This document shows, piece after piece, positions 20,795 to 43,724 of a stretch of DNA of 64,000 bases; within the stretch, counting starts at the first letter, position 1; every line of letters starts with the position of its first letter. A program made the translations under genes and the position numbers. Under the pieces are notes generated by a model that was given only the letters and a program-made list of their open reading frames with translations, was not told the DNA's origin and ran no database searches. Location: assembly GCA_036867785.1 (NCBI GenBank), contig CP145418.1, positions 1,240,001 through 1,304,000 on the forward strand. The letters are read 5' to 3'. This stretch comes from Plasmodiophora brassicae. Its lineage: Eukaryota.

Positions 20795-23026
20795 ATGCCA
20801 CCGCAGCAACGAGCGCGATTAATGCGCTTCATCGACGAGGCGTACGTCGATGCGATCACCGAGCGCTGGGCGACGGCGATTCTGTCCCAGATCGACTGTG
20901 CGAAACCGCCGACGTGCCCGATCAGCCTGGAGCCTATCATGGACGCCGCCTCCGGCCGCATCGCCGACGACGTTGTCGCGATCGTCGAGGAGCGCGACGG
21001 GCTATGCCATGCGTTCATGTTCAAGCAGCGCCACCTGGAGGAGTGGTTCCTGGCCAGTCCGGATCGGTTGAACCCGGCGACGAACCGACCGGTCGACGAC
21101 GCGTACTCGTGCCTGATCCCGTTGTCGCGTTCGCTGTACCGACTCGACAACGCTCTGCACGACTATCTGACGGAACGGGGCGATGATGCCTTGTCCGAGG
21201 ACGACCTGCCCGTCTGTGTTCGCGACCTGCTGACGGCGGGCGCCTGCGTCGACGTCGTCCGCTCTGCACACGACCGCCCGCGCCTGTTCCCGCTCGTCAT
21301 CGCCGCCTGCCGGGGCAACATCGCGGTCGTTCGGTGCCTCGTCGAGACGTTTTCGGCCAATGTCAACGTCATTGACGACTCGGGCTTCTCCGTCCTCGAG
21401 CACGCCGCCCTTCTGGGCCATGCCGCCGTCGTCCGGTACCTGATCGAGCACGGTGCCGACGTCCAGGCTGACTACGATGACGGCGAACGCGCCGTCAACG
21501 CGCTGCGAATGGCCGCCGTGGGCGGGCACCTGTCCCTCGTCGTCGACCTGATCGACGAGTTCAACGCCGACATCAACTTCCACGTCCTGCGCGTGAAGTC
21601 GTCCGCCCTGGCGGGCGCTGCCCGCGGCCACCTCGACGTCGTACAGGAGCTCGTCCGGCGCGGCGCCAAGGTCGACATCAAGATCGTCGAGAACCCGCTG
21701 GTGATCGCCGCCGTCGAGGGTCACTTGGACATCGTCCAGTACCTGGTCGTGGAGGCGCGCGCCCAGGTCGACTTCTGCAATGCCGACGGGTTTACGCCTC
21801 TGACGGCCGCATCGCGCGGAGGTCACCTCGACGTCGTCGAATTCCTGCTCGCCAGCGGCGCCCAGGTCGACCTGGGCGACGGACCGCTGCCGCTGATCCA
21901 GGCGGCGTACTTCGGCCACCTCGACGTCGTACGCGTGCTCGTCGAGCACGGCCACGCGTCGATCAACGGCGATCGGAACGCGTCCGCGCTGGCATGGGCC
22001 GCCCACCGGGGCCATCTCGACGTTGTCGAATGGCTCGCGGGGCACGGTGCCGAGGTCGACCCCGCGTACGGCTCCGTCCCCGTCGTCGAGGCCGCCGCCA
22101 ACGGGCACCTCGACATCGTCCGGTTCCTGGTCGAGCGCGCCGCCGCCGACGTCAACTTCGCGTCGGGCGGGCGCAAAGCGGCCGCGTTGGCGGCCGCTGC
22201 CGCGGGTGCCCATCTCGACGTCGTCCAGTGGCTGATCGGGCACGGCGCCGATGTCAACCCCGATTACAACGCTGTGCCCCTGATCGAAGCGGCCGCGAAC
22301 GGCCACGTCGACATCGTCCGGATCCTTCTGGACAACGGCGCCAAGCTCGACTGGTCCAACGCCGACGGCTACTGCTCGTTGATCGCGGCCTCCAACGCCG
22401 GCCACACCCACGTCGTCGAGCTCTTGTGCCTGCGCGGCGCCTCGATGTACGCGACCGCCGGCAACTTGTCGTGGTGGACCGCGATGCACCAGGCGGTGGC
22501 ACGCGGCCATGTCGACGTCGTCGGCGCCCTGCTCCGGTTGCCGAACCTGGACGTGAACGCGCGCCACGACACATTCCCGCTGACGATGATGCAGACGGCC
22601 TGCATCAGTCCGGCGCCCGATTCGCTCGCCATCTGCCGTCTGCTGATCGGTGCCGGCGCCGACGTCGACGCGACCGGCAGCGTCAAGGCGGTGCCGGCGC
22701 CGCTCCTGATCGCCGCCAGTACCCGATCTCTGGAGCTCGTCGAACTGCTCGTCGACGCCGGTGCCGATATGCTCGTCAAGAATGCCGAGCGACAGACGGC
22801 GCTGATGATCGCCGCTAGCAAGGGTCGTGCCGACCTGGTCAGCTACCTACTCGGCCGTCTCCTGGCCGACCGGCGCATCCCGGCCAGGCGCGTCGCGCGT
22901 CAGTTCGCCAAGGCCAAGGTCGCCGCCGTCGACGGCGACCACGTCGACCTGATTGGCGACATTGTCGAGAAGAGTGAGTCGTTCGCGACAAGAAGGCGGT
23001 CGACGTCGTCCTGCGCCATACAATAG
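20795..23026 (+). CDS. Ankyrin-repeat protein with N-terminal U-box-like domain, copy 1
   Basis: Intronless 743 aa; CPISLEPIMD...FKQRHLEEWF...NPATNRPV followed by many GHLDVV ankyrin repeats. Confidence 0.9.
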   Translation: MPPQQRARLMRFIDEAYVDAITERWATAILSQIDCAKPPTCPISLEPIMDAASGRIADDVVAIVEERDGLCHAFMFKQRHLEEWFLASPDRLNPATNRPVDDAYSCLIPLSRSLYRLDNALHDYLTERGDDALSEDDLPVCVRDLLTAGACVDVVRSAHDRPRLFPLVIAACRGNIAVVRCLVETFSANVNVIDDSGFSVLEHAALLGHAAVVRYLIEHGADVQADYDDGERAVNALRMAAVGGHLSLVVDLIDEFNADINFHVLRVKSSALAGAARGHLDVVQELVRRGAKVDIKIVENPLVIAAVEGHLDIVQYLVVEARAQVDFCNADGFTPLTAASRGGHLDVVEFLLASGAQVDLGDGPLPLIQAAYFGHLDVVRVLVEHGHASINGDRNASALAWAAHRGHLDVVEWLAGHGAEVDPAYGSVPVVEAAANGHLDIVRFLVERAAADVNFASGGRKAAALAAAAAGAHLDVVQWLIGHGADVNPDYNAVPLIEAAANGHVDIVRILLDNGAKLDWSNADGYCSLIAASNAGHTHVVELLCLRGASMYATAGNLSWWTAMHQAVARGHVDVVGALLRLPNLDVNARHDTFPLTMMQTACISPAPDSLAICRLLIGAGADVDATGSVKAVPAPLLIAASTRSLELVELLVDAGADMLVKNAERQTALMIAASKGRADLVSYLLGRLLADRRIPARRVARQFAKAKVAAVDGDHVDLIGDIVEKSESFATRRRSTSSCAIQ

Positions 23027-24166: not shown

Positions 24167-26602
24167 ATGCCGCCGCAGCAACGAACGCGATTGCTGAACT
24201 TCATCGACGAGGCGTACGTCGATGCGATCACCGAGCGCTGGGCGACGGCGATTCTGTCCCAGATCGACTGTGCGGAACCGCCGGCGTGCCTGATCAGCAA
24301 GAAGCCGATCGTGGACGCCGCCACTGGTCGCGTCGCCGATGACGTCGTCGCGATCGTCGAGGAGCGCGACGGTCTATGCCATGCGTTCATGTTCAAGCAG
24401 CGCCACCTGGAGGAGTGGTTCCTGGCCCGGTTTGGTCGGTTGAACCCGGCGACGAACCGACCGGTCGACGACGCGTACTCGTGCCTGATCCCGTTGTCCC
24501 TTTCGCTGTACCGACTCGACAACGCCCTACACGACTACCTGGCGGAACGGGGCGACGATGCCTTGTCCGAGGACGACCTGCCCGTCTGCGTTCGCGACCT
24601 GCTGACGGCGGGCGCCTGCGTCGACGTCGTCCGCTCTGCACACGACCGCCCGCGCCTGTACCCGCTCGTCATCGCCGCCTGCCGGGGCAACATCGCGGTC
24701 GTCCGGTGCCTCGTCGAGACGTTCTCGGCCACTGTCAACGCCATTGACGACACGGGCTTCTCCGTCCTCGAGCACGCCGCCCTTCTGGGCCATGCCGCCG
24801 TCGTCCGGTACCTGATCGAGCACGGCGCCGTCGTCCAGGCTGACTACGAGGACTGCGAACGCGGCGTCAACGCGCTGCGAATGGCCGCCCTGGGCGGCCA
24901 TTTGTCCCTGGTCGTCGACCTGATCGACGAGTTCAACGCCGACATCGACTTCCACGTCCCGTACGTGGTGTCGTCCGCCCTGGCCGGTGCCGCTCACGGC
25001 CACCTCGACATCGTACAGGAGCTCGTCCGGCGCGGCGCCAAGGTCGACATCAAGCAGGTCGAGAACCCGCTGGTGATCGCCGCCTTCGAGGGCCATCTGG
25101 ACATCGTCCAGTACCTGGTCGTGGAGGCGCGCGCCCAGGTCGACTTCGCCGATGCCGACGGATTTACGCCGCTGACGGCCGCATCGGCCGGAGGTCACCT
25201 CGACGTCGTCGAGTTCCTGCTTGCTAGCGGCGCCCAGGTCGACCTGGGCGATGGACCGCAGCCGCTGATCCAGGCGGCGTACTTCGGGCACCTCGACGTC
25301 GTACGCCTGTTCGTCGAACGCGATCGCACGTCGATCAACAGCTCCGCCTCGGTTCGAGACGCGTGCGCGCTGGCGTCGGGCGCTCACAAGGACCATCTCG
25401 ATGTTTTCGAGGACGAGATGTGTTACTTCGAAGAGTGCTGTCCCGTTCTCGACTTCGAGGCCGCCGGAAACGGGGGCGCTAGAATCATCCGGTACAGTGT
25501 CAGGCGCGGCGCCGCCCGCCACATCTACTTCGCGTCGGCCGGGTGCAAATCGGCCGCGTTGGCGGCCGCTGTCGCACGTGGCCATCTCGACGTCGTCCAG
25601 TGGCTGATCGGGCACGGCGCCGATGTCAACCCCGGTCACGGCGCTGTGCCCATGGTCGAAGCGGCCGCGAACGGCCACGTCGACGTTGTCCGGATCCTCC
25701 TGGACAAAGGTGCCCGGCTCGACCGGTGCAAACGCGGCTCCTACTGCCCGTTGTCCGTGGCCGCCAGGGCCGGCCACGCCAACGTCGTCGAGCTGCTGTG
25801 TTCGCGTGGCGCCTCGGTGTACGCGGCCGCCGGCAACGTGTCGTGCTCGGTCGCGATTAACGAGGCGGCGGAGCGCGGCCATGTCGACGTCGTCGGGATC
25901 CTCCTGGACAACGGTGGCCAGCTCGACCGGTCGAACTGCGTCGCCTACTGCCCGTTGATCGTGGCCGCCAAGGCCGGCCACGCCAACGTCGTCGAACTGT
26001 TGTGCCTGCGCCGCGCCTCGATGTACGCGACCGCGGGCAACGTGCTGTGCTGGGTCGCGATGCAGCAGGCTGTGGAGCGCGGCCATGTCGACGTCGTCGG
26101 CGCCCTGCTCCGGTTGCCGAACCTGGACGTGAACGCGCGCAGCGACACGTTCCCGCTGACGATGATCCAGATGGCCTGCACCAGTTCGTCGCCTGATTCG
26201 GTCGCCATCTGCCGTCTGCTGCTCGACGCAGGCGCCGACGTCAACGCGACCGGCAGCATCAAGGCGGTGCCCGCGCCGCTCCTGATCGCCGCCAGTACCG
26301 GATCGCTCGATCTCGTCGAACTGCTCGTCGGCGCCGGTGCCGATCTGCTCGTCAAGAACGCCGAGCGACAGACGGCGCTGATGATCGCCGCTAGCAAGGG
26401 CCGTGCCGACCTGGTCAGCTACCTGCTCGGCCGTCTCCTGGCCGACAGGCGCATCCCGGCCAGGCGCGTCGCGCGTCAGCTCGCCAAGGCCAAGGTCGCT
26501 GCCGTCGACGGCGACCACGTTGCCGTGATCGGCGACATTGTCGAGAAGAGTGAGTCGTTCGCGACAGGAAGACGGCCGACGTCGTCCTGCGCCATACAGT
26601 AG
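24167..26602 (+). CDS. Ankyrin-repeat protein with N-terminal U-box-like domain, copy 2
   Basis: Intronless 811 aa, close paralog of copy 1 with an extra 204-bp (68-aa) unit. Confidence 0.9.
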   Translation: MPPQQRTRLLNFIDEAYVDAITERWATAILSQIDCAEPPACLISKKPIVDAATGRVADDVVAIVEERDGLCHAFMFKQRHLEEWFLARFGRLNPATNRPVDDAYSCLIPLSLSLYRLDNALHDYLAERGDDALSEDDLPVCVRDLLTAGACVDVVRSAHDRPRLYPLVIAACRGNIAVVRCLVETFSATVNAIDDTGFSVLEHAALLGHAAVVRYLIEHGAVVQADYEDCERGVNALRMAALGGHLSLVVDLIDEFNADIDFHVPYVVSSALAGAAHGHLDIVQELVRRGAKVDIKQVENPLVIAAFEGHLDIVQYLVVEARAQVDFADADGFTPLTAASAGGHLDVVEFLLASGAQVDLGDGPQPLIQAAYFGHLDVVRLFVERDRTSINSSASVRDACALASGAHKDHLDVFEDEMCYFEECCPVLDFEAAGNGGARIIRYSVRRGAARHIYFASAGCKSAALAAAVARGHLDVVQWLIGHGADVNPGHGAVPMVEAAANGHVDVVRILLDKGARLDRCKRGSYCPLSVAARAGHANVVELLCSRGASVYAAAGNVSCSVAINEAAERGHVDVVGILLDNGGQLDRSNCVAYCPLIVAAKAGHANVVELLCLRRASMYATAGNVLCWVAMQQAVERGHVDVVGALLRLPNLDVNARSDTFPLTMIQMACTSSSPDSVAICRLLLDAGADVNATGSIKAVPAPLLIAASTGSLDLVELLVGAGADLLVKNAERQTALMIAASKGRADLVSYLLGRLLADRRIPARRVARQLAKAKVAAVDGDHVAVIGDIVEKSESFATGRRPTSSCAIQ

Positions 26603-26889: not shown

Positions 26890-27807
26890 TTAGACAGGCC
26901 GATCGGCATCGTCGGTCATGGACGTCGTCTCCCTGGCGGCAGCAGCACCGGCGCACGGCCAGCTGGCGGCTGCCCGTCGTTTCGCCATCTGCCGTTTGCA
27001 CATGGCGCAGCAGCAGGCTTCCCGACAGGCCGGGCAAATCCAGTCGTCCTGCGCCGACGCCCAGCGCTGCCTGTTGGACGCGGCCCCTCCATAGAACCGA
27101 TCCAGACACGGGCTGTATGGCACACACACACGTACAGGTCAGTCCAATGTCGCAGGCAGCGCCACACGTGGCTGGCTCCCTCCTTACAAGCAGTATTTCT
27201 TCTTGCAGACGCGTCGCTGCCCGCTGATATCATCCGACCACTGGCACTGGATCAGGTCGGTGAAGTCGCGCCGGCTCTTGCATTGGTGACAGGACGTGCC
27301 GACCGCAGCGGCCATGGGCGATGCGGCGAAATCGTGTGGCGGCATCGTCATCTGCGCCAGGACAGGCCGCCGCTCGCTGCTGGTCGTGTCGCACGGCGCC
27401 AGCATCGTGTCCATGAAGTCCAGCTCGGCGCTAGGGTCCGCGATGGTTTCCGACCCGGCCTGGAAGATCTCGAGGATCGCAGGTGGCAACTGGGGGCTGC
27501 GTGGACTACGAACCAGACGGTCCTGGTCGCTGAACGTCGTCGTCGGGATCGCCAACGGTGCCAAGCCCGCTGGTCGACGCATGCCCGGCGTCGAGGCGCG
27601 CTGCCGTTTCCTGTTGCTCAGGACGGCGTCGATGTTCGGGTCCAGAAACGTGGACGGTGCTGGGCCCCAGCTGCCGGGTCGGCACGCGGGTTGCTGCGTC
27701 GGGACCGATAGGGGCGCGGTGCTCACATGCATCTGCTGGCACACCAGCTGGGCACGCTGAGCCGCGAATTCGATCCGCTTCTGTAGGTCGACCAACGCAG
27801 CCGACAT
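26890..27807 (-). CDS. zf-4CXXC_R1 (CDCA7-like) zinc-finger protein
   Basis: TSCHQCK...C...CKKKYC (intron) PCLDRFYG...WICPACREACCCAMCKR. Confidence 0.85.
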
Positions 27808-28420
27808 CGCCCGGGGCGAACGAAACGACGTGACCTTGCCGGGCGCGTGGAACGCTCGTCAAGGACTCGAGGGACGGGCGGCGCAGGAGCCCCAGCACGC
27901 CGTCGTGCCAAATATCTCCCTGTGACAGCTGCACCAAGGCGACGGAACCCCCTGTGCCACAGACCTGCCCAGCGCATCCCCGGACCAAGTCAGACATCGT
28001 TCCACGAGACATCGATCCTCGACGGAGGGCGGGGCCCCCGTCCCCTTGGAACATCAAGCGGTGCGCTCTTCGACGCCCGTCGTCCACCATTCGGCAGACA
28101 GGACGAGCGTAAACCAAATTACATCCATGGCTGGCGCGTGTTCCGGCGCCGGTGTTGCCCAGGATCGGGTGCCGCCCGCCAGGGGCTGAGGGGGGTGCAC
28201 AACGGACTCTGCCCGGGCAGTCGCAGCAGCTGGACGGGCCGCGGAGTGCGCCTGCGGACTCCGCGGCCATTGTCTGTAGCAGACGACGAGTGGTGGCCGC
28301 TCGTTTCCGTCCGTCCCTGCCGTGTCTGCCAGTTCGGGTTCGTCGAGGACCGGGTGCCGACCCACACACACACACGCGCGCACACGTAGGCGAGCAACCT
28401 CGAACGCCGCACGCTCGATC

Positions 28421-31264
28421 ATGTCGCGTTTCTTCGCGACCCGCGCCTCCGATGACGAATCGGATTCGTCGTCGTCGTCGTCGGCGGCGGGCATGGGCGG
28501 GCAGATGCAGATGCGGGACCAGCAGCAGCAGTCCGCCATGCTGCTGTACGACTCGTCGTCGTCCGAGGAGGAGAAGCGCGTCGTCCGGAGCGCGCGCGAC
28601 AAGCAGTCCGAGGCGATGACCGCCACGATCCGCGCCCTGCGCAACTCGATGAAGATCGACGACTGGGCCAACGTGCTCAAGGCGTTCGAGGCCGCCAACC
28701 GCCTGATCGAGAAGGCGCGGCCCAAGACGCAGAAGGAGGGCATCCCGCGGCAGTACATCCGCATGCTGTGCGACCTGGAGGACGCCGTCAACGCCGCCGT
28801 GTCCGACCGCGACGCCCGCAAGCAGCTGTCGGGGCCGAACTCGCGCGCCGTCAACGTCCTCAAGCAGAAGATGCGGAAGCACAACCGCCAGTTCGAGGCG
28901 CTGATCAACGAGTACAGGGCGTCGCCGGACCAGGGCGGCGACCAGTTCGCGTCGTCGGCCAGCGTCGAGGAGACCGGGTCGTCGTCCGAGGACGCGTCCG
29001 AGGAGGAGCGCTCTGAAGGCGAGTCGGAGGGCGAACCGGGCAGCGACGACCAGGACGACGACAAGGCGTTCGACGACGACGACGACGAGTTCGACTTTGA
29101 GTCGGACGACGATGCGTCCGCGTCGTCCGCGTCGTCCGACTCGGACATCGACCTGTCGCACCCGGCCATGTCGCGCGCCTACTGGGTCAAGAAGACCAAG
29201 GACGACGAGGAGGAGATGACCAAGGAGGATCGGCGGCGCCTGCGCCAGAAGAAGGCGTCGACGACGGGCGGCACCAAGGCCAGCCGGGCGCTGGCGAAGG
29301 CGGGCGCCACCGCCGAGGCTGCCAAGGAGATCGAGTTCACGCCCGAGCTGATCCAGCAGAAGCTGATGCTGATCCAGTCGTCGCGCGGCAAGCGCGGCGC
29401 CGACCGGCACGCCGCCGTCAAGGAGCTCAAGGTGCTGGCGTCGAAGGCGTCGTCGGTGCCCGCCCTGATCAAGGTCAAGATCACGCTGCTGTCCGCCATG
29501 TTCGACATCAACTTCAACAGCGGGACGCACATGCAGGTGTCGCTCTGGCACCACGCCTGCGACACGCTGCTCGACATCCTCGACACGCTCGACGACAATC
29601 CGAACGTGCTCCTGATCGAGGACGCCGACGTCGACGAGACCGTGTTCGCCGTCGACGCCAACGACAAGGAGGCGGTGGCGCGCGCCGAATCCATCACCGC
29701 CATGCAGGCGTCGGCGACGGCCACGGCGCTGTCCGTTGTGGAGGCCGGCGGCGCCTTCATCCCCGAGGTGCGCCACAAGCGCGACGACGGCCTCGAGTAC
29801 GTCGCCGGCAACGTGTACTCGTTCGCGGCGCGCCTGTCGGACGAGTACGTGGCGTCGCTGCAGAACCTGGACCCGCACACGCAGGAGTACCTGGACCGGC
29901 TGGGCGACGAGCCCCGCCTGCTCCAGCTGCTGGGCAGGGCCCACGACTACTACGGGCGGGCGCGCGTCGGCGACCAGCACCGCCGGACGTGCACCGCTCT
30001 GCTCGCCCTGCTGCGCGTCGAGCTGCTGTACACCAAGTACGAGCCGGCCCTGGACGCGCACCGCGACGGCGGTGAGGGCGACGCCGTGCGTTCCCGGGCG
30101 CGCCTGATCGACGACGTCCTGCACGGCGACCCGCGCCTGCTCCTGCACCGCCTGTGCGCCCTCCTGTACGCGTACGGGGACGCGCGCGGCAAGGCCCGCG
30201 CCGTCCTGTGCACGGCGTACCACCACGCGATGCACGGCGAGTTCCATGCGGCCCGCGACCTGATCCTCATGTCGCACGTGCACGACACGATCGGGCAGGC
30301 GGACGTGTCGACGCAGATCCTGTACAACCGCGCCCTGGCCATGCTGTCCGTCTGCGCGTTCCGCCAGGGGCTGATGGGCGACGCCCTGTCGCTGATCGCC
30401 GACCTGTACGGGACGGGGCGCATCCGCGAGCTGTTGGCGCAGGGCACCGGGCAGACGCGCTGGGGCCAGGACCGCGACACCGAGCAGGAGAAGCTGGAGC
30501 GACGCCGGCAGATGCCGTACCACGTGCACCTGTCGCTGGACCTGCTCGAGTCCGTCCACCTGGTGTCGGCCATGATCCTCGAGGTGCCCAACCTGGCCGT
30601 GCACGCCGCCGACGACAAGCGCCACGTCATCTCGAAGAACTTCCGCCGCGTCTGGGACGCCTTCCACAAGAACGCGTTCAACGGGCCGCCCGAGAACACG
30701 CGCGACTACGTGATCGCCGCCGCCGTCGCCCTGTCCGACGGCGACTGGCGCGCCGCCTACGACCACCTGCTGCAGCTGAAGTGCTGGGCGCTGATCCCGC
30801 ACGCCGCCAAGGCGCAGGCGGTGCTGCGCGCCCAGGTCCAGGTGACCGGCCTGCAGACCTGGCTGCTGGCGTACGGCGCCCACTACGTCAGCCTGGACGC
30901 GCGCGCCCTGGCCGACCGGTTCGACCTCGCCGAGCGCGACGTGCGCGCCTGCGCCAGCCGCCTGATCGCCGCCGACCGCCTGGCCGGCGCCTGGGACGAG
31001 CCGGCCAACGCCATCGGCATGGCCGCCCCGATCCAGAACGACCTGCAGAGCGCGGCGCTCAAGTTCGCCGACATTGTCGGCATCCTCGTCGAGCAGAACG
31101 AACGCAGCCTGGAGCACCGCCACCAGCACGGCAAGGGCGGCGGCGGCGGCGGCGGTGGCGGGCCGTTCGCCGCCTCGTCGACGGGCGGCGCGCACCACCT
31201 GAAGCGGGCCGCCCCCGCTGGCAAACCGCAGCAGGGCGAGTTTGGCGCGTCGCGACGGTGGTGA
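28421..31264 (+). CDS. EIF3C: Eukaryotic translation initiation factor 3 subunit C
   Basis: MSRFF...acidic; KRVVRSARDK, IDDW, KQKMRKHN, SLQNLDPHTQEY, QILYNRA, RRQMPYHVHL, GPPENTRD; PCI-like C-terminus. Confidence 0.96.
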   Translation: MSRFFATRASDDESDSSSSSSAAGMGGQMQMRDQQQQSAMLLYDSSSSEEEKRVVRSARDKQSEAMTATIRALRNSMKIDDWANVLKAFEAANRLIEKARPKTQKEGIPRQYIRMLCDLEDAVNAAVSDRDARKQLSGPNSRAVNVLKQKMRKHNRQFEALINEYRASPDQGGDQFASSASVEETGSSSEDASEEERSEGESEGEPGSDDQDDDKAFDDDDDEFDFESDDDASASSASSDSDIDLSHPAMSRAYWVKKTKDDEEEMTKEDRRRLRQKKASTTGGTKASRALAKAGATAEAAKEIEFTPELIQQKLMLIQSSRGKRGADRHAAVKELKVLASKASSVPALIKVKITLLSAMFDINFNSGTHMQVSLWHHACDTLLDILDTLDDNPNVLLIEDADVDETVFAVDANDKEAVARAESITAMQASATATALSVVEAGGAFIPEVRHKRDDGLEYVAGNVYSFAARLSDEYVASLQNLDPHTQEYLDRLGDEPRLLQLLGRAHDYYGRARVGDQHRRTCTALLALLRVELLYTKYEPALDAHRDGGEGDAVRSRARLIDDVLHGDPRLLLHRLCALLYAYGDARGKARAVLCTAYHHAMHGEFHAARDLILMSHVHDTIGQADVSTQILYNRALAMLSVCAFRQGLMGDALSLIADLYGTGRIRELLAQGTGQTRWGQDRDTEQEKLERRRQMPYHVHLSLDLLESVHLVSAMILEVPNLAVHAADDKRHVISKNFRRVWDAFHKNAFNGPPENTRDYVIAAAVALSDGDWRAAYDHLLQLKCWALIPHAAKAQAVLRAQVQVTGLQTWLLAYGAHYVSLDARALADRFDLAERDVRACASRLIAADRLAGAWDEPANAIGMAAPIQNDLQSAALKFADIVGILVEQNERSLEHRHQHGKGGGGGGGGGPFAASSTGGAHHLKRAAPAGKPQQGEFGASRRW

Positions 31265-38764: not shown

Positions 38765-38972
38765 TGCGGCCTTCCACGCTTCCCAGTCTGCGCTCCGTCA
38801 TCCAGGGCTGTGTTGAAGTAAACGTACATGCGAATAATTGCCAGTGAGCTTGAACGAGCAACCGATAGCTAGGCGGTTCTTGCGGATAACAGCATTGCTG
38901 ACGGAGACTTAATGGCGAATTGTATAACAACAGTACGGTGGCGTGAGGTGAGGCGACATGCCCAGCGCGTCG

Positions 38973-40334
38973 TCAGTTTGGGTTCGACATCTGGAACACC
39001 TCGTTGGCCTGCTGCGTGACACGAATGAACGAGCAGCGTTTCGTGAGTTCCTTCAGGTGGAGCGCCCCGACGCTGAACAACCCGCACGCCCTGGTTAGTG
39101 CAATGCCCAACGCGTGTCCAGGCTTCGACGTACTAGGTGCACGTGGAGCGTAGCCCGCCCAGCATGTCCAGACAGGTCTCTCGCACGGGCCCGCGGTACG
39201 GGATCAGAACGCTCTTGCCCTCGGAAGCGCGATACTCAGCGACCCCGCCGGCTGTCGCACGGCTGCCTCAGCAACGCCCTGCGGCGACAGGGTCGTACCG
39301 AGACGACATACCGTGCGTATGCATGGCCTTGCTGGAGCTCATGCCGTAGAACTCCCTGTACTGCACGCCGCCCTTCTCCACCAGCTCGCCGCCAGACTCG
39401 TCATGGCCAGCGAATATGCCGCCGCACTGTACGACACCAAGCGGCACACATGTATCAGTACGCGTCGCGACGCCCGACCGACATGGGCGCAGCGTTCACC
39501 ATAACGAAATCGCTGCCGGCGCCAAACGCCTTCGCGACGTCGCCAGGGACAACGCAGCCGCCATCGGAAACGATTTGTCCTACGGAACGTGCGACCTGTT
39601 AGACAGCGCTAGGGTACAATGGGAGCGCCCAGAGACCGCCGAGCCCGTGAGCCGCGTCGGCACACTCGATGACGGCGCTGAGCTGCGGGTACCCGACGCC
39701 GGTCTTGATGCGGGTCGTGCAGACCGAACCGGGGCCGATGCCGACCTTGACGACGTCGGCGCCGGACAGAATCAACTGTTCCGTCATTTCGCCGGTCACG
39801 ACGTTGCCAGCGATAATGCTGATCTGCGGGTGCGCCTCACGAACGCGTCGAATCTGTCCGAGCCATGGTCAGCAAACGACCCGGACGTGCCAGGCTGTCA
39901 GGCGACCGCCTTACGAACTGGACGAAATTCTCGGAATATCCGTTGGCAACGTCCAGGCAGATGAAGGGGATCGCGGGGATGTCCCGCAAGACGGCGTTGA
40001 GCTTCTCGAGGTCGTTCGCCGTCGTACCGCTGGAGACCGCCACATGGTTGAGGACGTTGGGGTGGCTGCCTGCAAAATCCTTCCACTCGTCGACCGTGTA
40101 ATGCTTGTGGATGCAGGTCAGCATGGAGTGCTCGGCCAGCGCGCTAGCCATAGCGAACGTGCCGGTCGTGTCCATGTTGGCCGCAATGATGGGCACCCCC
40201 GCCCACGTCTTCTTCGTGTGCAGGAACGTGAACTCGCGGACCAGGTCGACATCGGCCCGGGACCGTAACGTGGACCGCTTCGGGCGTATGAGTACGTCCT
40301 TGAAGTCGAGCTTGATGCCCTCCTCGATCCGCAT
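38973..40334 (-). CDS. GMPR: GMP reductase (GuaC type 1; multi-exon)
   Basis: [71 protein letters not shown]. Confidence 0.96.
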
Positions 40335-40651
40335 GCCTGTATGCGTTGTGCCGGGTGCCGGTTGCGAGCCACACCGTCCGGGGGCGACACGCGGACTGCG
40401 CTACGCGACCAGACGACGTTTGACGCGCGCAGGTACGCCCCCCGAACAGTGCAACGCAAATGTTATAACACTCAGTAGGTAACCACGTACAACGTTGCCT
40501 GATGATGCGGCATCCGGGCCAGTACTGGACGAGACTGGCACGCACCGTTCCTGCTGTGATTGAGGTGGAGAGTGTAACGGCACAGAAGCGTGCTCCTGCA
40601 CATGATCATATGTCGAGAACCAGCCGGCACGGGTGGATTGCCGGACGAGGG

Positions 40652-42070
40652 CTACTGGCGTTGGTGTGGTTCGACGAGGACAGCGAGGCCAGCAAGGTCG
40701 ATGTCGCCGTTGTGGAGTCGATATGCACTTCGCTGTTCGCAGGTCAGAGGACCAACCAGCTGCGCGTTGGATCGAAGAAGGGCGTCGATTTCCATGACAA
40801 TGGGGAGGCGGCCTTTGCCATGCTGCGCGACAACGAACCAGGTGCCGTTCTCCGTTATGCCAACGCCGACGCAAATCACCCAGTGAGCCGACTGACCTGC
40901 CCGGTGGCAAGGTTGATGATCGGGGCCACTGTCGAACGCCATCAGCAGATAGCCGCCCTGCAGGATCGGAACAATGACATCGTCCCGACTAGCGACAGGG
41001 ACGGTTCGACAACGCAGACGCAGCGACGTCCGCGCTAAGAGTTCCAGGTGTTTAGCGCTAAACATTTCGCCGACGTGCGTGTACCCCGCGTCAATGGCCT
41101 GCATCAACAGGCGTTCGCCACGATCGGTAATGGATTCGGCAGCATAGTCGGCAGTGCTGCCTGATAGGTCGTCAGTGTCCACAGGGCCAGGCCAGACAGC
41201 GGCAAAGCACTCGGGGACGGCAGGCAGGCACAAGAACGCGGAGTGTGCTGAGACAGAACCTGGGACAATGCGCCCGGTAGGTGGTTGCAGCGCGGCCATC
41301 GAGATGGCAGCCAGGCCACAGGTGGGCCCGACTTGCTGGATCCAGGGCAGCGGCGCCGTGCTCACCAGGCACAGCGTCATTGTCTGGCAATCGCCGGCAG
41401 CAGACGGCCGCGTTCGCCACAGGTCGACAGCCCAATGCTGACGATCAACGCGCACAGGCGGGCGCTGACAAATGAATGCCTTGGACATCCAGGTCGTGCC
41501 GCTGTCATCTTCGCCAACGCCTGCTGCGTGCTCTCCGTCGACATTGCTGAGCAGGGCCGCAATGCCACGTACGTTGGACTGGGCGCCTTTCGACGACATG
41601 CCGATGGACGTGGGCGGGCATTGGCGATACCCGAGCCGACCGTAGAACGGCGCTGAATCGGGCAGCGTTTGCAACGACAGGCGCACGACATCATGTTGCT
41701 GCTGCAGGCGAGACTGGATATGGCACAGGAAGGTTCGGCCTAACCCCCGGCGCCGGTACTCCTCCACGATGACGAACGACGACAGCAGGGCGTGGCGTTC
41801 TGGTAGGCGTCGTGGCGGACGTCGGCCTGGCAGAATGCGGACGGCAGCGTATCCGACCGGGTCGCCCCTATCCGGAACGTGCAGGACGAATTGCAATGCG
41901 CTGGTGCGCTGCAGGCGATCCAGGCGTGAGATCGGCGCAGACGACGATGGCCACTGCGTTTCGAGAATTGACGCAACGAAAGACAGGCACGCCTGACGCT
42001 GCTGATCGCCATCGATGTCGGCGACAAGGCGAGTGACGGCGGCCGACGTCAGATCGCCGCCACCCGGCAT
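40652..42070 (-). CDS. Fusion protein: NAA80-like GNAT acetyltransferase + ACTMAP (C19orf54/UPF0692)-like cysteine protease
   Basis: Uninterrupted 472-aa ORF. N-half: ILETQWP..SRL, VGYAAV, VIVEEYRRRGLGR, FYGRLGY, WMSK. C-half: QVGPTCGLAAISMA, GYTHVGEMFSA, FDSGPDHQPCHRAGQSAHW, QHGK, SNAQL. Confidence 0.85.
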   Translation of the reverse strand: MPGGGDLTSAAVTRLVADIDGDQQRQACLSFVASILETQWPSSSAPISRLDRLQRTSALQFVLHVPDRGDPVGYAAVRILPGRRPPRRLPERHALLSSFVIVEEYRRRGLGRTFLCHIQSRLQQQHDVVRLSLQTLPDSAPFYGRLGYRQCPPTSIGMSSKGAQSNVRGIAALLSNVDGEHAAGVGEDDSGTTWMSKAFICQRPPVRVDRQHWAVDLWRTRPSAAGDCQTMTLCLVSTAPLPWIQQVGPTCGLAAISMAALQPPTGRIVPGSVSAHSAFLCLPAVPECFAAVWPGPVDTDDLSGSTADYAAESITDRGERLLMQAIDAGYTHVGEMFSAKHLELLARTSLRLRCRTVPVASRDDVIVPILQGGYLLMAFDSGPDHQPCHRAGQSAHWVICVGVGITENGTWFVVAQHGKGRLPIVMEIDALLRSNAQLVGPLTCEQRSAYRLHNGDIDLAGLAVLVEPHQRQ

Positions 42071-42336
42071 GATTCGGTGCGGGTGCGTGGCGCCGGCGGG
42101 TCCGCACACTTCTGACGTTGCCGTGGTCACCTACTGTAGGCAGATGATTTCCAGCCGTGCCAGACGCCCCCGTTTAAGCTGGCCAGTCCAGTTGGTAATG
42201 TATTGGAAAACGATCAAAACGGATAAACGGAACAGCAGGTCACGAAACGCGGATGTGTTTTCGGGCGTTACGCGGTGGCTGATGCTGAGGCAACTCGGTA
42301 ACTGATGGCCATGGGGAGGCGCGGTAATGAGCTCGA

Positions 42337-42870
42337 CTACGGCGAACCACGCCCCGCATCAGTAGCGCCAGCAGTAATACGGCACAGGTTCCGATGCGAC
42401 GCCACCGTCGGTCGGCCGTTCAAACTCACCGTTCGTGCTTTGGCAGGGGCATCATCACCCCTGACCTCAGATGCCGCTGCATTTGGAGACGGTATGCCAG
42501 TACCGCCGGTTTGCTTTGGCTGGCGCCAACGTCGGGAATAGACCGCCATGACCAGCACGATGGCGGCGCCAACGACAACGAATGGTAGATTGGATGTCGC
42601 CCACGCAGTGAAATCAAGCGAATCGCTGGCGGACAGGAAGATCAACGGGATAGGCGGTGTAGGGTCCACAAACGAACGTGTCGCGTCACCGCCACCGGAC
42701 TTCAGGTGCAGCAGCTGATTGTCAAGGTCAGCATCTTCAGTATGATCGTGAGGGTCTTCCCCGGTGTCGTCCTCGTCCATGACAATGGAATACGTGGGTG
42801 GAAGCATCGTTACGAAGATAATGGAGGTAATAAGAACGGGCACGATGGGGCACGAAGTGAACAACGTCAT
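42337..42870 (-). CDS. Small hypothetical type I membrane protein
   Basis: Hydrophobic N-terminus, acidic ectodomain, TM LPFVVVGAAIVLVMAVY followed by RRWR. Confidence 0.5.
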   Translation of the reverse strand: MTLFTSCPIVPVLITSIIFVTMLPPTYSIVMDEDDTGEDPHDHTEDADLDNQLLHLKSGGGDATRSFVDPTPPIPLIFLSASDSLDFTAWATSNLPFVVVGAAIVLVMAVYSRRWRQPKQTGGTGIPSPNAAASEVRGDDAPAKARTVSLNGRPTVASHRNLCRITAGATDAGRGSP

Positions 42871-43118
42871 GGTTGCAGGATGGGGCAGCGACGCAGGCGT
42901 CCACCGTTGCGATTTGCCGGATGGCAGATACGGCGGTCCCACGTCACGGACTGTGGCCAGCGCTATTTGTGGGCCACACCAGACTGGAGCGGCCTCTGTC
43001 ACCCCGACACTGAACGGGTCGAACAGCATCACTGCGTGCTGGACAGTGATGTTTGGCGACAGACGACGTTTGTTCGCCCCGCTATATCGTATCGACATGA
43101 TGTGGTTGACTATTGATA

Positions 43119-43724
43119 TTAGAAGAATGCATCGACTGGGTTGGTGCGCAGGTCAGCGGCCGTCCTTGCGGTCACGCCGACCCTTTGAACACGTCGACGT
43201 CGAGCGCAGGTGACAACAACGAGACAGGCGAGACAGATGCCGCCAATACAGGCCCATATAACCATAACGACAAGCGAATCGTCTGAGCTCTGACCGCCCA
43301 TTTCTCGTCTTGTTGTCAGGACCTCCGCATCGAGAGAAGCAGGCGACGACGCGAGCTGTCGGCGAAGAACGCTGCGTGTTATTATCGACGAAACGACCAA
43401 TGTCGTGACGAACTTCGTAACACGACTGATCTTAGCAGGAAGGTCAAGTCGATGCGTGTGTGTCCTCGACACCGGGTCTGTCAAGCGTCGTCTGCTTCGT
43501 GACAGATATGCATGAGACGTTTGTAGGCCAAGTGTCAGCAACGTCAGCACCAAGTGAGACGCGTGGGCTGCAGGATAATCCCAATGCCCTCCTTCGACCG
43601 GATCGCTGCGGTGCGCACCATTGCGCCACAGATGAGAGGTGCTACTGGCAGCCAGCACAGGCACCAGGAGTAGGCCGAAAACGATTGCCACAGGACGGCG
43701 CAGTCGATCGTGACTCGCAGGCAT
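43119..43724 (-). CDS. Small hypothetical secretory/membrane protein
   Basis: Signal-like VAIVFGLLLVPVLAA; C-terminal TM LVVMVIWACIGGICLACLVVV followed by RRRR. Confidence 0.5.
   Translation of the reverse strand: MPASHDRLRRPVAIVFGLLLVPVLAASSTSHLWRNGAHRSDPVEGGHWDYPAAHASHLVLTLLTLGLQTSHAYLSRSRRRLTDPVSRTHTHRLDLPAKISRVTKFVTTLVVSSIITRSVLRRQLASSPASLDAEVLTTRREMGGQSSDDSLVVMVIWACIGGICLACLVVVTCARRRRVQRVGVTARTAADLRTNPVDAFF

Follow-up and report, generated by a model that had tools for sequence, protein, structure and literature searches.

In animals the N-terminus of actin is matured in two consecutive steps, cleavage by an ACTMAP-type protease and subsequent acetylation by NAA80, and it is this pathway on which our functional reading draws (PMC11735805; PMC5924898). 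Processing by NAA80, also called NatH, together with ACTMAP has been called animal-specific in reviews and research papers (PMC11735805; PMC10318143; PMC13557074). Drazic and colleagues, however, described orthologues of NAA80 for some Amoebozoa, among them Dictyostelium, in which actin undergoes the same processing as in animals (Drazic et al., 2018; PMC5924898), and for the cercozoan Paulinella an actin acetylated at Glu3 was reported and a NatH inferred (PMC9237673). Here we analyse a stretch of 64,000 nucleotides of the Plasmodiophora brassicae genome (contig CP145418.1, positions 1,240,001 to 1,304,000; this whole stretch is called the window, and all coordinates refer to it), which contains at 40652..42070 on the minus strand a gene for a single 472-residue protein. 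This protein is almost certainly a fusion of an NAA80-like acetyltransferase and an ACTMAP-like protease and, by analogy to the animal enzymes, it probably functions in actin maturation.

How the animal enzymes recognize their substrate has been worked out in part. According to Goris and colleagues, Trp36 and Arg43 of fly NAA80 contact residue 2 of the substrate, and the variants W36A and R43A are inactive (Goris et al., 2018; PMC5924903). Lys73 and Ser88 contact substrate residue 3, and mutants in Glu87 are active (PMC5924903). The long beta6-beta7 loop is absent from fly NAA80, so that the poly-proline run known from vertebrate NAA80 is not a family-wide property (PMC5924903). For human ACTMAP C132 was given as nucleophile (PMC13367750). 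Another paper still treats C19orf54, which is ACTMAP, as a protein of unknown function and mentions that in bacteria a GNAT domain is frequently joined to the related peptidases of the DUF3335 type (PMC10318531). A full-text literature search returned no description of an NAA80-ACTMAP fusion, with a mention in Haahr 2022 or Arnesen & Aksnes 2023 not excluded; the fusion is a new architectural variant of the known two-enzyme pathway.

The coding sequence (40652..42070) consists of 472 codons and a stop codon, 1419 nucleotides in all, and is intron-free. Upstream of the ATG at 42070 the first in-frame stop codon is a TAG located 21 codons before it, and there is no ATG in between. As the guanine plus cytosine (G+C) content at the locus is about 62%, the length of the open reading frame (ORF) is by itself weak evidence, and the case therefore rests on homology. 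The original prediction, made from the letters of the window, had described a stop-free ORF of 472 codons with a GNAT half and a cysteine-protease half. The same translation was obtained in our analysis and all motifs that were quoted are present, namely QWP (residues 39-41), SRL (48-50), RRRGLG (106-111), FYGRLGY (142-148) and WMSK (194-197) in the GNAT half, and QVGPTCG (246-252), GEMFS (334-338), DSGPDHQPCHRAGQSAHW (380-397) and SNAQL (434-438) in the protease half. Likewise, the codons it had named for the catalytic Cys (41318-41320) and His (40883-40885) lie where it had placed them and encode Cys251 and His396. The two domains are separated by a linker of residues 200-233 (41372..41473), as delimited by structure prediction with AlphaFold2 (AF2) and by alignment; like the gene itself, all its parts are read from the minus strand.

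The N-terminal domain (residues 6-199, 41474..42055) was assigned to the NAA80-type GNATs using the Pfam GNAT models, a family profile, Foldseek and VIA-align. The Pfam GNAT family PF00583 matches the window protein with an E-value of 4.2e-9. For a finer distinction between the families a profile of alignment A1, which comprises 60 family sequences of at least 390 residues, query included, was run against the sequences of the PDB. The profile matched NAA80 of fly (5wjd, E 3.4e-35, 125 bits) and of human (6nas, E 1.8e-31, 113 bits), followed by 3fb3 as the next GNAT (E 1.3e-11, 47 bits), NAA30 (7l1k, E 1.5e-06, 30.7 bits) and NAA50 (6yzz, E 3.9e-06, 29.3 bits), the NAA80 structures scoring about 65-78 bits above every other solved GNAT. 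The AF2 model calculated from A1 had a predicted local distance difference test score (pLDDT) of 81.2 and a predicted template modelling score (pTM) of 0.80, with a confident GNAT fold. When this model was compared with the PDB by Foldseek, ranks 1-5 were all occupied by NAA80 entries, and VIA-align, an aligner independent of Foldseek, yielded Z-scores of 18.8 and 18.2 for NAA80 versus 16.1 for the next chain, a modest margin. A structure search in the Atlas independently led to clusters named 'N-alpha-acetyltransferase 80' and 'Actin maturation protease', and in an NCBIfam scan of the window protein all GNAT matches were below threshold. The sequence and model comparisons thus support that the GNAT half is of the NAA80 type, as it is best matched by NAA80 in the family profile and by two structure aligners, and, in agreement with what had been proposed, no other GNAT family claimed it.

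Three of the four substrate-contact residues of fly NAA80 (W36, R43 and S88) are kept in the window protein. Trp40 (codon 41951..41953) is the equivalent of W36 and falls on profile position 31, at which 51 of the 60 family rows have a tryptophan, and Arg49 (codon 41924..41926) is the equivalent of R43 on profile position 39, with an arginine in 32 of the 60 rows; Ser88 maps by the same profile onto Ser98. The acetyl-CoA motif R106-R-R-G109-L-G111 (41738..41755) is intact, and its arginine and two glycines are found in 56, 57 and 59 of the 60 family rows, respectively. The beta6-beta7 loop, which from the AF2 model and the sequence comprises residues 150-192 (41495..41623), is poorly modelled (pLDDT below 50 for residues 159-189) and contains one predicted helix, residues 164-175. 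A poly-proline run is not found in the loop before WMSK (residues ~150-193), which contains a single Pro-Pro pair, as had been noted from the letters alone. This absence does not disqualify the GNAT half from being an NAA80, since fly NAA80 does without the long loop altogether.

The C-terminal half (residues 234-466, 40673..41371) was identified as a cysteine protease domain of the ACTMAP family, with a predicted papain-like fold, by Pfam, by alignment and by its structural neighbour in the Atlas. The Pfam family ACTMAP-like_C (PF21646) matches residues 315-403 with an E-value of 7.8e-23 and 81.6 bits, the cut-off being 27. In alignment A3 residues 223-472 were placed together with three fusions and six named stand-alone homologues, namely the 'UPF0692 protein C19orf54 homolog' of Schistocerca, the 'Actin maturation protease' of Thecamonas and the proteins of Mesorhabditis, Creolimax, Chytriomyces and Rhodomonas, to which the protease half of the window protein is 27-35% identical. 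Invariant in A3 are G-P-x-C-G, G-E-x-F, Asp380, Pro387, A-H and Ser434. Cys251 (codon 41318..41320), which within QVGPTCG is the predicted nucleophile, does not vary in A1, in A3 or in alignment A2; His396 (codon 40883..40885), the predicted general base in SAHW, is invariant in A2 and A3 and nearly so in A1; and Gln246 shows no variation in A1 and A2, while 90% or more of the A3 rows have it. A glutamine located five positions ahead of the cysteine, in combination with the histidine, is what would be expected of a papain-like active site, and Cys251 would be the equivalent of C132 of human ACTMAP. The first structural neighbour of the model that the Atlas has for this protein is an 'Actin maturation protease' from Chordata, with a template modelling (TM) score of 0.67 by target and 0.45 by query. 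Families of the DUF3335/C39 type (PF11814, PF13529 and PF03412) gave no match to the window protein at E-values of up to 1. The Pfam score and the Cys and His motifs, which are invariant versus the named homologues, support the membership of the protease half in the ACTMAP family, and so bear out the second part of the assignment made in the original prediction.

Are both halves expressed as a single unit? Contigs assembled from four public sequencing runs, which originate from four different studies, were compared with positions 38800-43200 of the window. In each of the four runs one contig skips the same five introns of the adjoining GMP reductase gene (39073-39133, 39252-39311, 39427-39499, 39579-39635 and 39854-39914, CT..AC on the plus and thus GT..AG on the minus strand), and since they skip GT-AG introns these contigs derive from spliced RNA. 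From position 39915 onwards the contigs are identical to the window up to 42100, 42124 and 42134 and, in the fourth run, up to 42075, with no joint, no indel and no base difference. As there is no joint across the whole ORF in any of the four runs, both halves are located on one unspliced RNA. The fusion gene is real, is expressed and is transcribed as one unspliced RNA. Regarding the transcript check that had been set beforehand, the RNA contigs neither separate the two halves nor splice out one of the domains. The region 42071..42134 is the probable 5' untranslated region, for which the three outermost contig ends hint at the end of the transcript.

The window protein does not stand alone. 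An exhaustive HMMER homologue search found 369 relatives at E-values of at most 0.001, the best 150 of which are covered by the survey described here, and the best relative besides the window's own product is 30% identical. PF21646 is present in all 60 sequences of at least 390 residues, query included, a GNAT domain in addition in 58 of them and PF13529 in one. A leave-one-out profile made from the 59 long relatives aligns to the window protein in one collinear stretch, residues 26-466, with 248.5 bits, which identifies the window protein as a true member of the family. A profile-based count of 164 retrieved sequences gave 65 fused, 92 protease-only and 7 unclear cases, some of the short sequences possibly being fragments. 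Named fused members are KAJ1451017.1 of Pelagophyceae sp. CCMP2097, A0A7S3NN50 of Aureoumbra lagunensis and A0A7S4C3U6 of the haptophyte Chrysotila carterae, to which a EukProt transcript can be added, and most of the other fused members are proteins from metagenomes or run assemblies. Stand-alone ACTMAP homologues were found in insects, a nematode, Thecamonas, Creolimax, a chytrid and a cryptophyte. A scan of prokaryote genomes with protein P0005 gave 134 pattern matches and no relatives among them. By sequence comparison, the window gene is one member of a widespread and apparently undiscussed fusion family and not a singular invention. The suggestion in the original prediction that the pathway reaches beyond animals is strengthened by the fusions in pelagophytes and a haptophyte, but it is not entirely new since part of it was already in print for Amoebozoa and Paulinella (PMC5924898; PMC9237673).

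How did fused and separate forms arise from each other? In a quick tree of the protease domain with 151 rows (64 fused, 82 stand-alone and 5 unlabelled) a mostly fused side with 63 fused rows is opposed to a mostly stand-alone side with 75 stand-alone rows, which include the insect, nematode, Thecamonas, Creolimax and chytrid proteins. On the stand-alone side only one row is fused, that of the window protein; the split has weak support (52), and 8 label changes are needed on this tree. A subsample of 62 rows was analysed with a mixture model; it consisted of 10 named and 52 randomly drawn rows, out of the 134 labelled rows that were left when 12 near-identical and 5 unlabelled ones had been dropped. 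In the resulting tree the window protein pairs with Thecamonas, a join that was flagged as long-branch. The approximately unbiased (AU) test did not reject a grouping of all fused rows (p 0.456), so that one event is compatible with the data, be it a fusion or, in the opposite direction, a fission. It could be imagined, albeit tentatively, that the fused protein is the ancestral form of actin N-terminal maturation, which predates the split of the major eukaryotic supergroups, and that the genes of animals became separate later, through a fission on the line that led to Thecamonas, fungi and animals. If this were so, the window protein could conceivably be a surviving fused form, the protease half of which already resembles the stand-alone type, a proposition that we likewise consider doubtful. 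Such a fused ancestor would predict that NAA80 and ACTMAP of animals continue to act together on profilin-actin, physically as one unit.

What could such a fusion protein do? In analogy to animal ACTMAP, the protease, with its predicted papain fold and Gln246, Cys251 and His396, would clip the acetylated first residue, for example acetyl-methionine, from newly made actin, whereupon the NAA80-type GNAT would move the acetyl group from acetyl-CoA onto the acidic N-terminus thereby exposed. Having both activities on one chain would provide them in equal amounts and keep them adjacent. That actin would be the substrate, that the reactions would occur in this order and that the substrate might be handed over between the two sites we infer from the animal pathway. 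A docking prediction of residues 1-205 versus residues 225-472, which was run without controls or family alignment, returned a score of 0.00 and is no evidence either way.

Several observations weigh against the assignment of the two halves or against actin as their substrate. When the window protein alone was compared with PDB sequences by phmmer, the archaeal N-terminal acetyltransferase Ard1 of Sulfolobus (E 0.018) came before fly NAA80 (E 0.092), and the GNAT half alone is a weak match to NAA80; what carries its assignment is the family profile, together with the model made from the family alignment. Identity to the NAA80 structures is 13-24%. Of the residues known from the fly enzyme, Lys73 is replaced by Ala76 at a position where 34 of the 60 family rows have Arg or Lys, with Arg78 located two residues further, and Glu87 is replaced by Ser97. 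For the protease half, the Foldseek and VIA-align lists obtained with the whole model were filled by GNAT chains and the matched span covered residues 6-201 only, and a profile of the protease alone found two matches at chance level among PDB sequences (E 0.37-0.39), no solved ACTMAP being matched. Finally, the bacterial fusions of a GNAT with a C39-like peptidase cannot act on an actin of their own, and the architecture alone consequently does not imply actin.

In an alternative reading the fusion protein performs the same two chemistries on a substrate that is not actin or not only actin, and would edit acidic N-termini in general. In vitro many peptides of the Met-Asp/Glu type are acetylated by the NAA80 enzymes of fly and human, which owe their specificity in the cell to the context (PMC5924903), and the changed substrate contact at Ala76 and the low identity to the animal enzymes would be consistent with a broader choice of substrates. 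However, actin is the only established substrate of both families in animals (PMC11735805), Trp40 and Arg49, which correspond to the two positions at which mutation inactivates fly NAA80, are kept, and if two enzymes work on one substrate, a fusion of exactly the NAA80 and ACTMAP families is to be expected, making a general editor rather unlikely. A more distant origin was also considered, in which the protein would be a eukaryotic offshoot of the bacterial fusions of GNAT and C39-like (DUF3335) peptidases, which are on record (PMC10318531), with a role in peptide processing unrelated to the actin pathway. The nearest entries in a feature search of the Atlas were indeed bacterial GNAT+DUF3335 clusters with scores of 0.92-0.93. 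These matches, however, share 142-155 of 256 features, fewer than the 170 typical of same-family matches, and the lack of any DUF3335/C39 match in Pfam next to the high score for ACTMAP-like_C, together with a GNAT profile that is specifically NAA80-like and NCBIfam matches to GNATs that are all sub-threshold, renders a bacterial offshoot very improbable.

The chance is similarly slight that one of the halves is a degenerate, non-catalytic module that serves in substrate binding or regulation. Nothing speaks directly for it; the equivalent of fly Glu87 is changed, yet fly mutants in this residue are active (PMC5924903), and the residues expected of working enzymes are kept in both halves, the acetyl-CoA motif, Trp40, Arg49 and Ser98 in the GNAT half, and Gln246, Cys251, His396, Asp380 and Glu335 in the protease half. 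Could the fusion itself be an artefact, arising from two adjacent genes joined by an assembly error or from an ORF that is split by splicing or into separate transcripts? In favour of such a view, the public protein for the same locus (P0002; 40652-41599, minus strand, 315 residues) begins at Met158 and is missing the GNAT half, and an extra internal transcription start would be compatible with the contigs. Four runs from four studies nevertheless yielded contigs that match the window letter for letter over the full length of the ORF, and 59 relatives from other organisms have the same collinear architecture, which leaves hardly any probability for an artefact. The public product looks like a truncated gene call that conceals the fusion, likely an annotation gap. 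Accordingly, a fusion of an NAA80-like GNAT with an ACTMAP-like protease, with actin as its probable target, is the reading that we prefer.

The fusion gene is located in a window of tightly packed genes with short GT-AG introns (57-73 nucleotides) and about 60% G+C, features that make the 'non-animal protist' of the original prediction plausible, whereas the introns speak against a trypanosomatid. A comparison of exon 1 of GMP reductase gave matches of no more than 68% identity, scattered among animals, oomycetes and bacteria. The GMP reductase gene mentioned above (38903-40334, minus strand) has six exons and five introns of 57-73 nucleotides, all confirmed by RNA, and lies 317 nucleotides downstream of the fusion ORF. 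The spacer between them (40335..40651) is covered by the same RNA contigs, and in all four runs GMP reductase and the fusion ORF are found on the same contig; this shared RNA may be dicistronic or may reflect overlapping untranslated regions. Upstream of the fusion gene follow two ORFs on the minus strand, 42337-43098 with 253 and 43119-43724 with 201 residues, which are covered by RNA and contain hydrophobic stretches but belong to no Pfam family. In the same region a contig of 6.3 kb from run X3 has two joints, 42076-42139 and 43068-43122, with GT..AG ends on the plus strand. It seems that a spliced plus-strand transcript has its start inside the initial codons of the fusion ORF, or antisense to them, and continues through 42140-43200, a region in which no convincing coding frame was found on the plus strand.

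Elsewhere in the window, two neighbouring ORFs with ankyrin repeats (20795-23026 with 743 residues and 24167-26602 with 811 residues, both on the plus strand) have near-identical Pfam patterns, which suggests a tandem duplication. The eIF3c gene (28421-31264, plus strand; PF05470, E 6.8e-147) lies in a stretch of 66-72% G+C, and an ORF of 913 codons opposite to it (27506-30247, minus strand) that has no Pfam match is probably a by-product of this high G+C content.

The single-chain fusion of these two families in distant protists provides 'Rosetta stone' evidence that functionally the two enzymes belong together as a unit, and its occurrence in such distant protists argues that the pathway is much older than animals. 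The fusion is also a natural test of a physical coupling of the two steps. Moreover, the gene would be a compact single-gene reagent for producing natively processed actin in heterologous hosts.

Compared with known systems, the bacterial proteins annotated as 'GNAT family N-acetyltransferase/peptidase C39 family protein' are analogous in that a papain-like peptidase comes after the GNAT domain (PMC10318531), but in these GNAT + DUF3335/C39-like fusions the peptidase belongs to a different Pfam family and the hosts are bacteria. The Atlas also contains a cluster of Myxococcota with ACTMAP-like_C and Peptidase_C39_2 and large clusters of Pseudomonadota with GNAT+DUF3335 fusions, both of which may be remotely related, or else analogous, to the machinery of eukaryotes. 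With NAA80/NatH of fly (5WJD, 5WJE) and human (6NAS, 6NBE, 6NBW) the window protein has in common the GNAT fold, the R-x-x-G-x-G motif for acetyl-CoA and the equivalents of W36, R43 and S88; it differs in that the acetyltransferase is the N-terminal half of a 472-residue protein and fused to a protease, and in that the equivalent of K73 is an alanine. The beta6-beta7 loop is long, as it is in human NAA80, whereas the poly-proline run for profilin binding is missing. With ACTMAP (C19orf54, UPF0692) it shares Q-x-G-P-x-C-G, G-E-M-F, D...H-x-P-C...A-H-W and S-N-x-Q-L, motifs that are likewise found in the insect, nematode, Thecamonas, Creolimax and chytrid homologues; the protease of the window protein is preceded by a GNAT domain, whereas the listed proteins of animals, Thecamonas, Creolimax and the chytrid are stand-alone. 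Closest in architecture are the fusions of pelagophytes and the haptophyte, which have the same order of domains, the same length class and the same conserved motifs and align collinearly with the window protein. They are 22-28% identical to it and carry A-H-Y in the protease motif, in place of which the window protein, like the stand-alone forms, has A-H-W.

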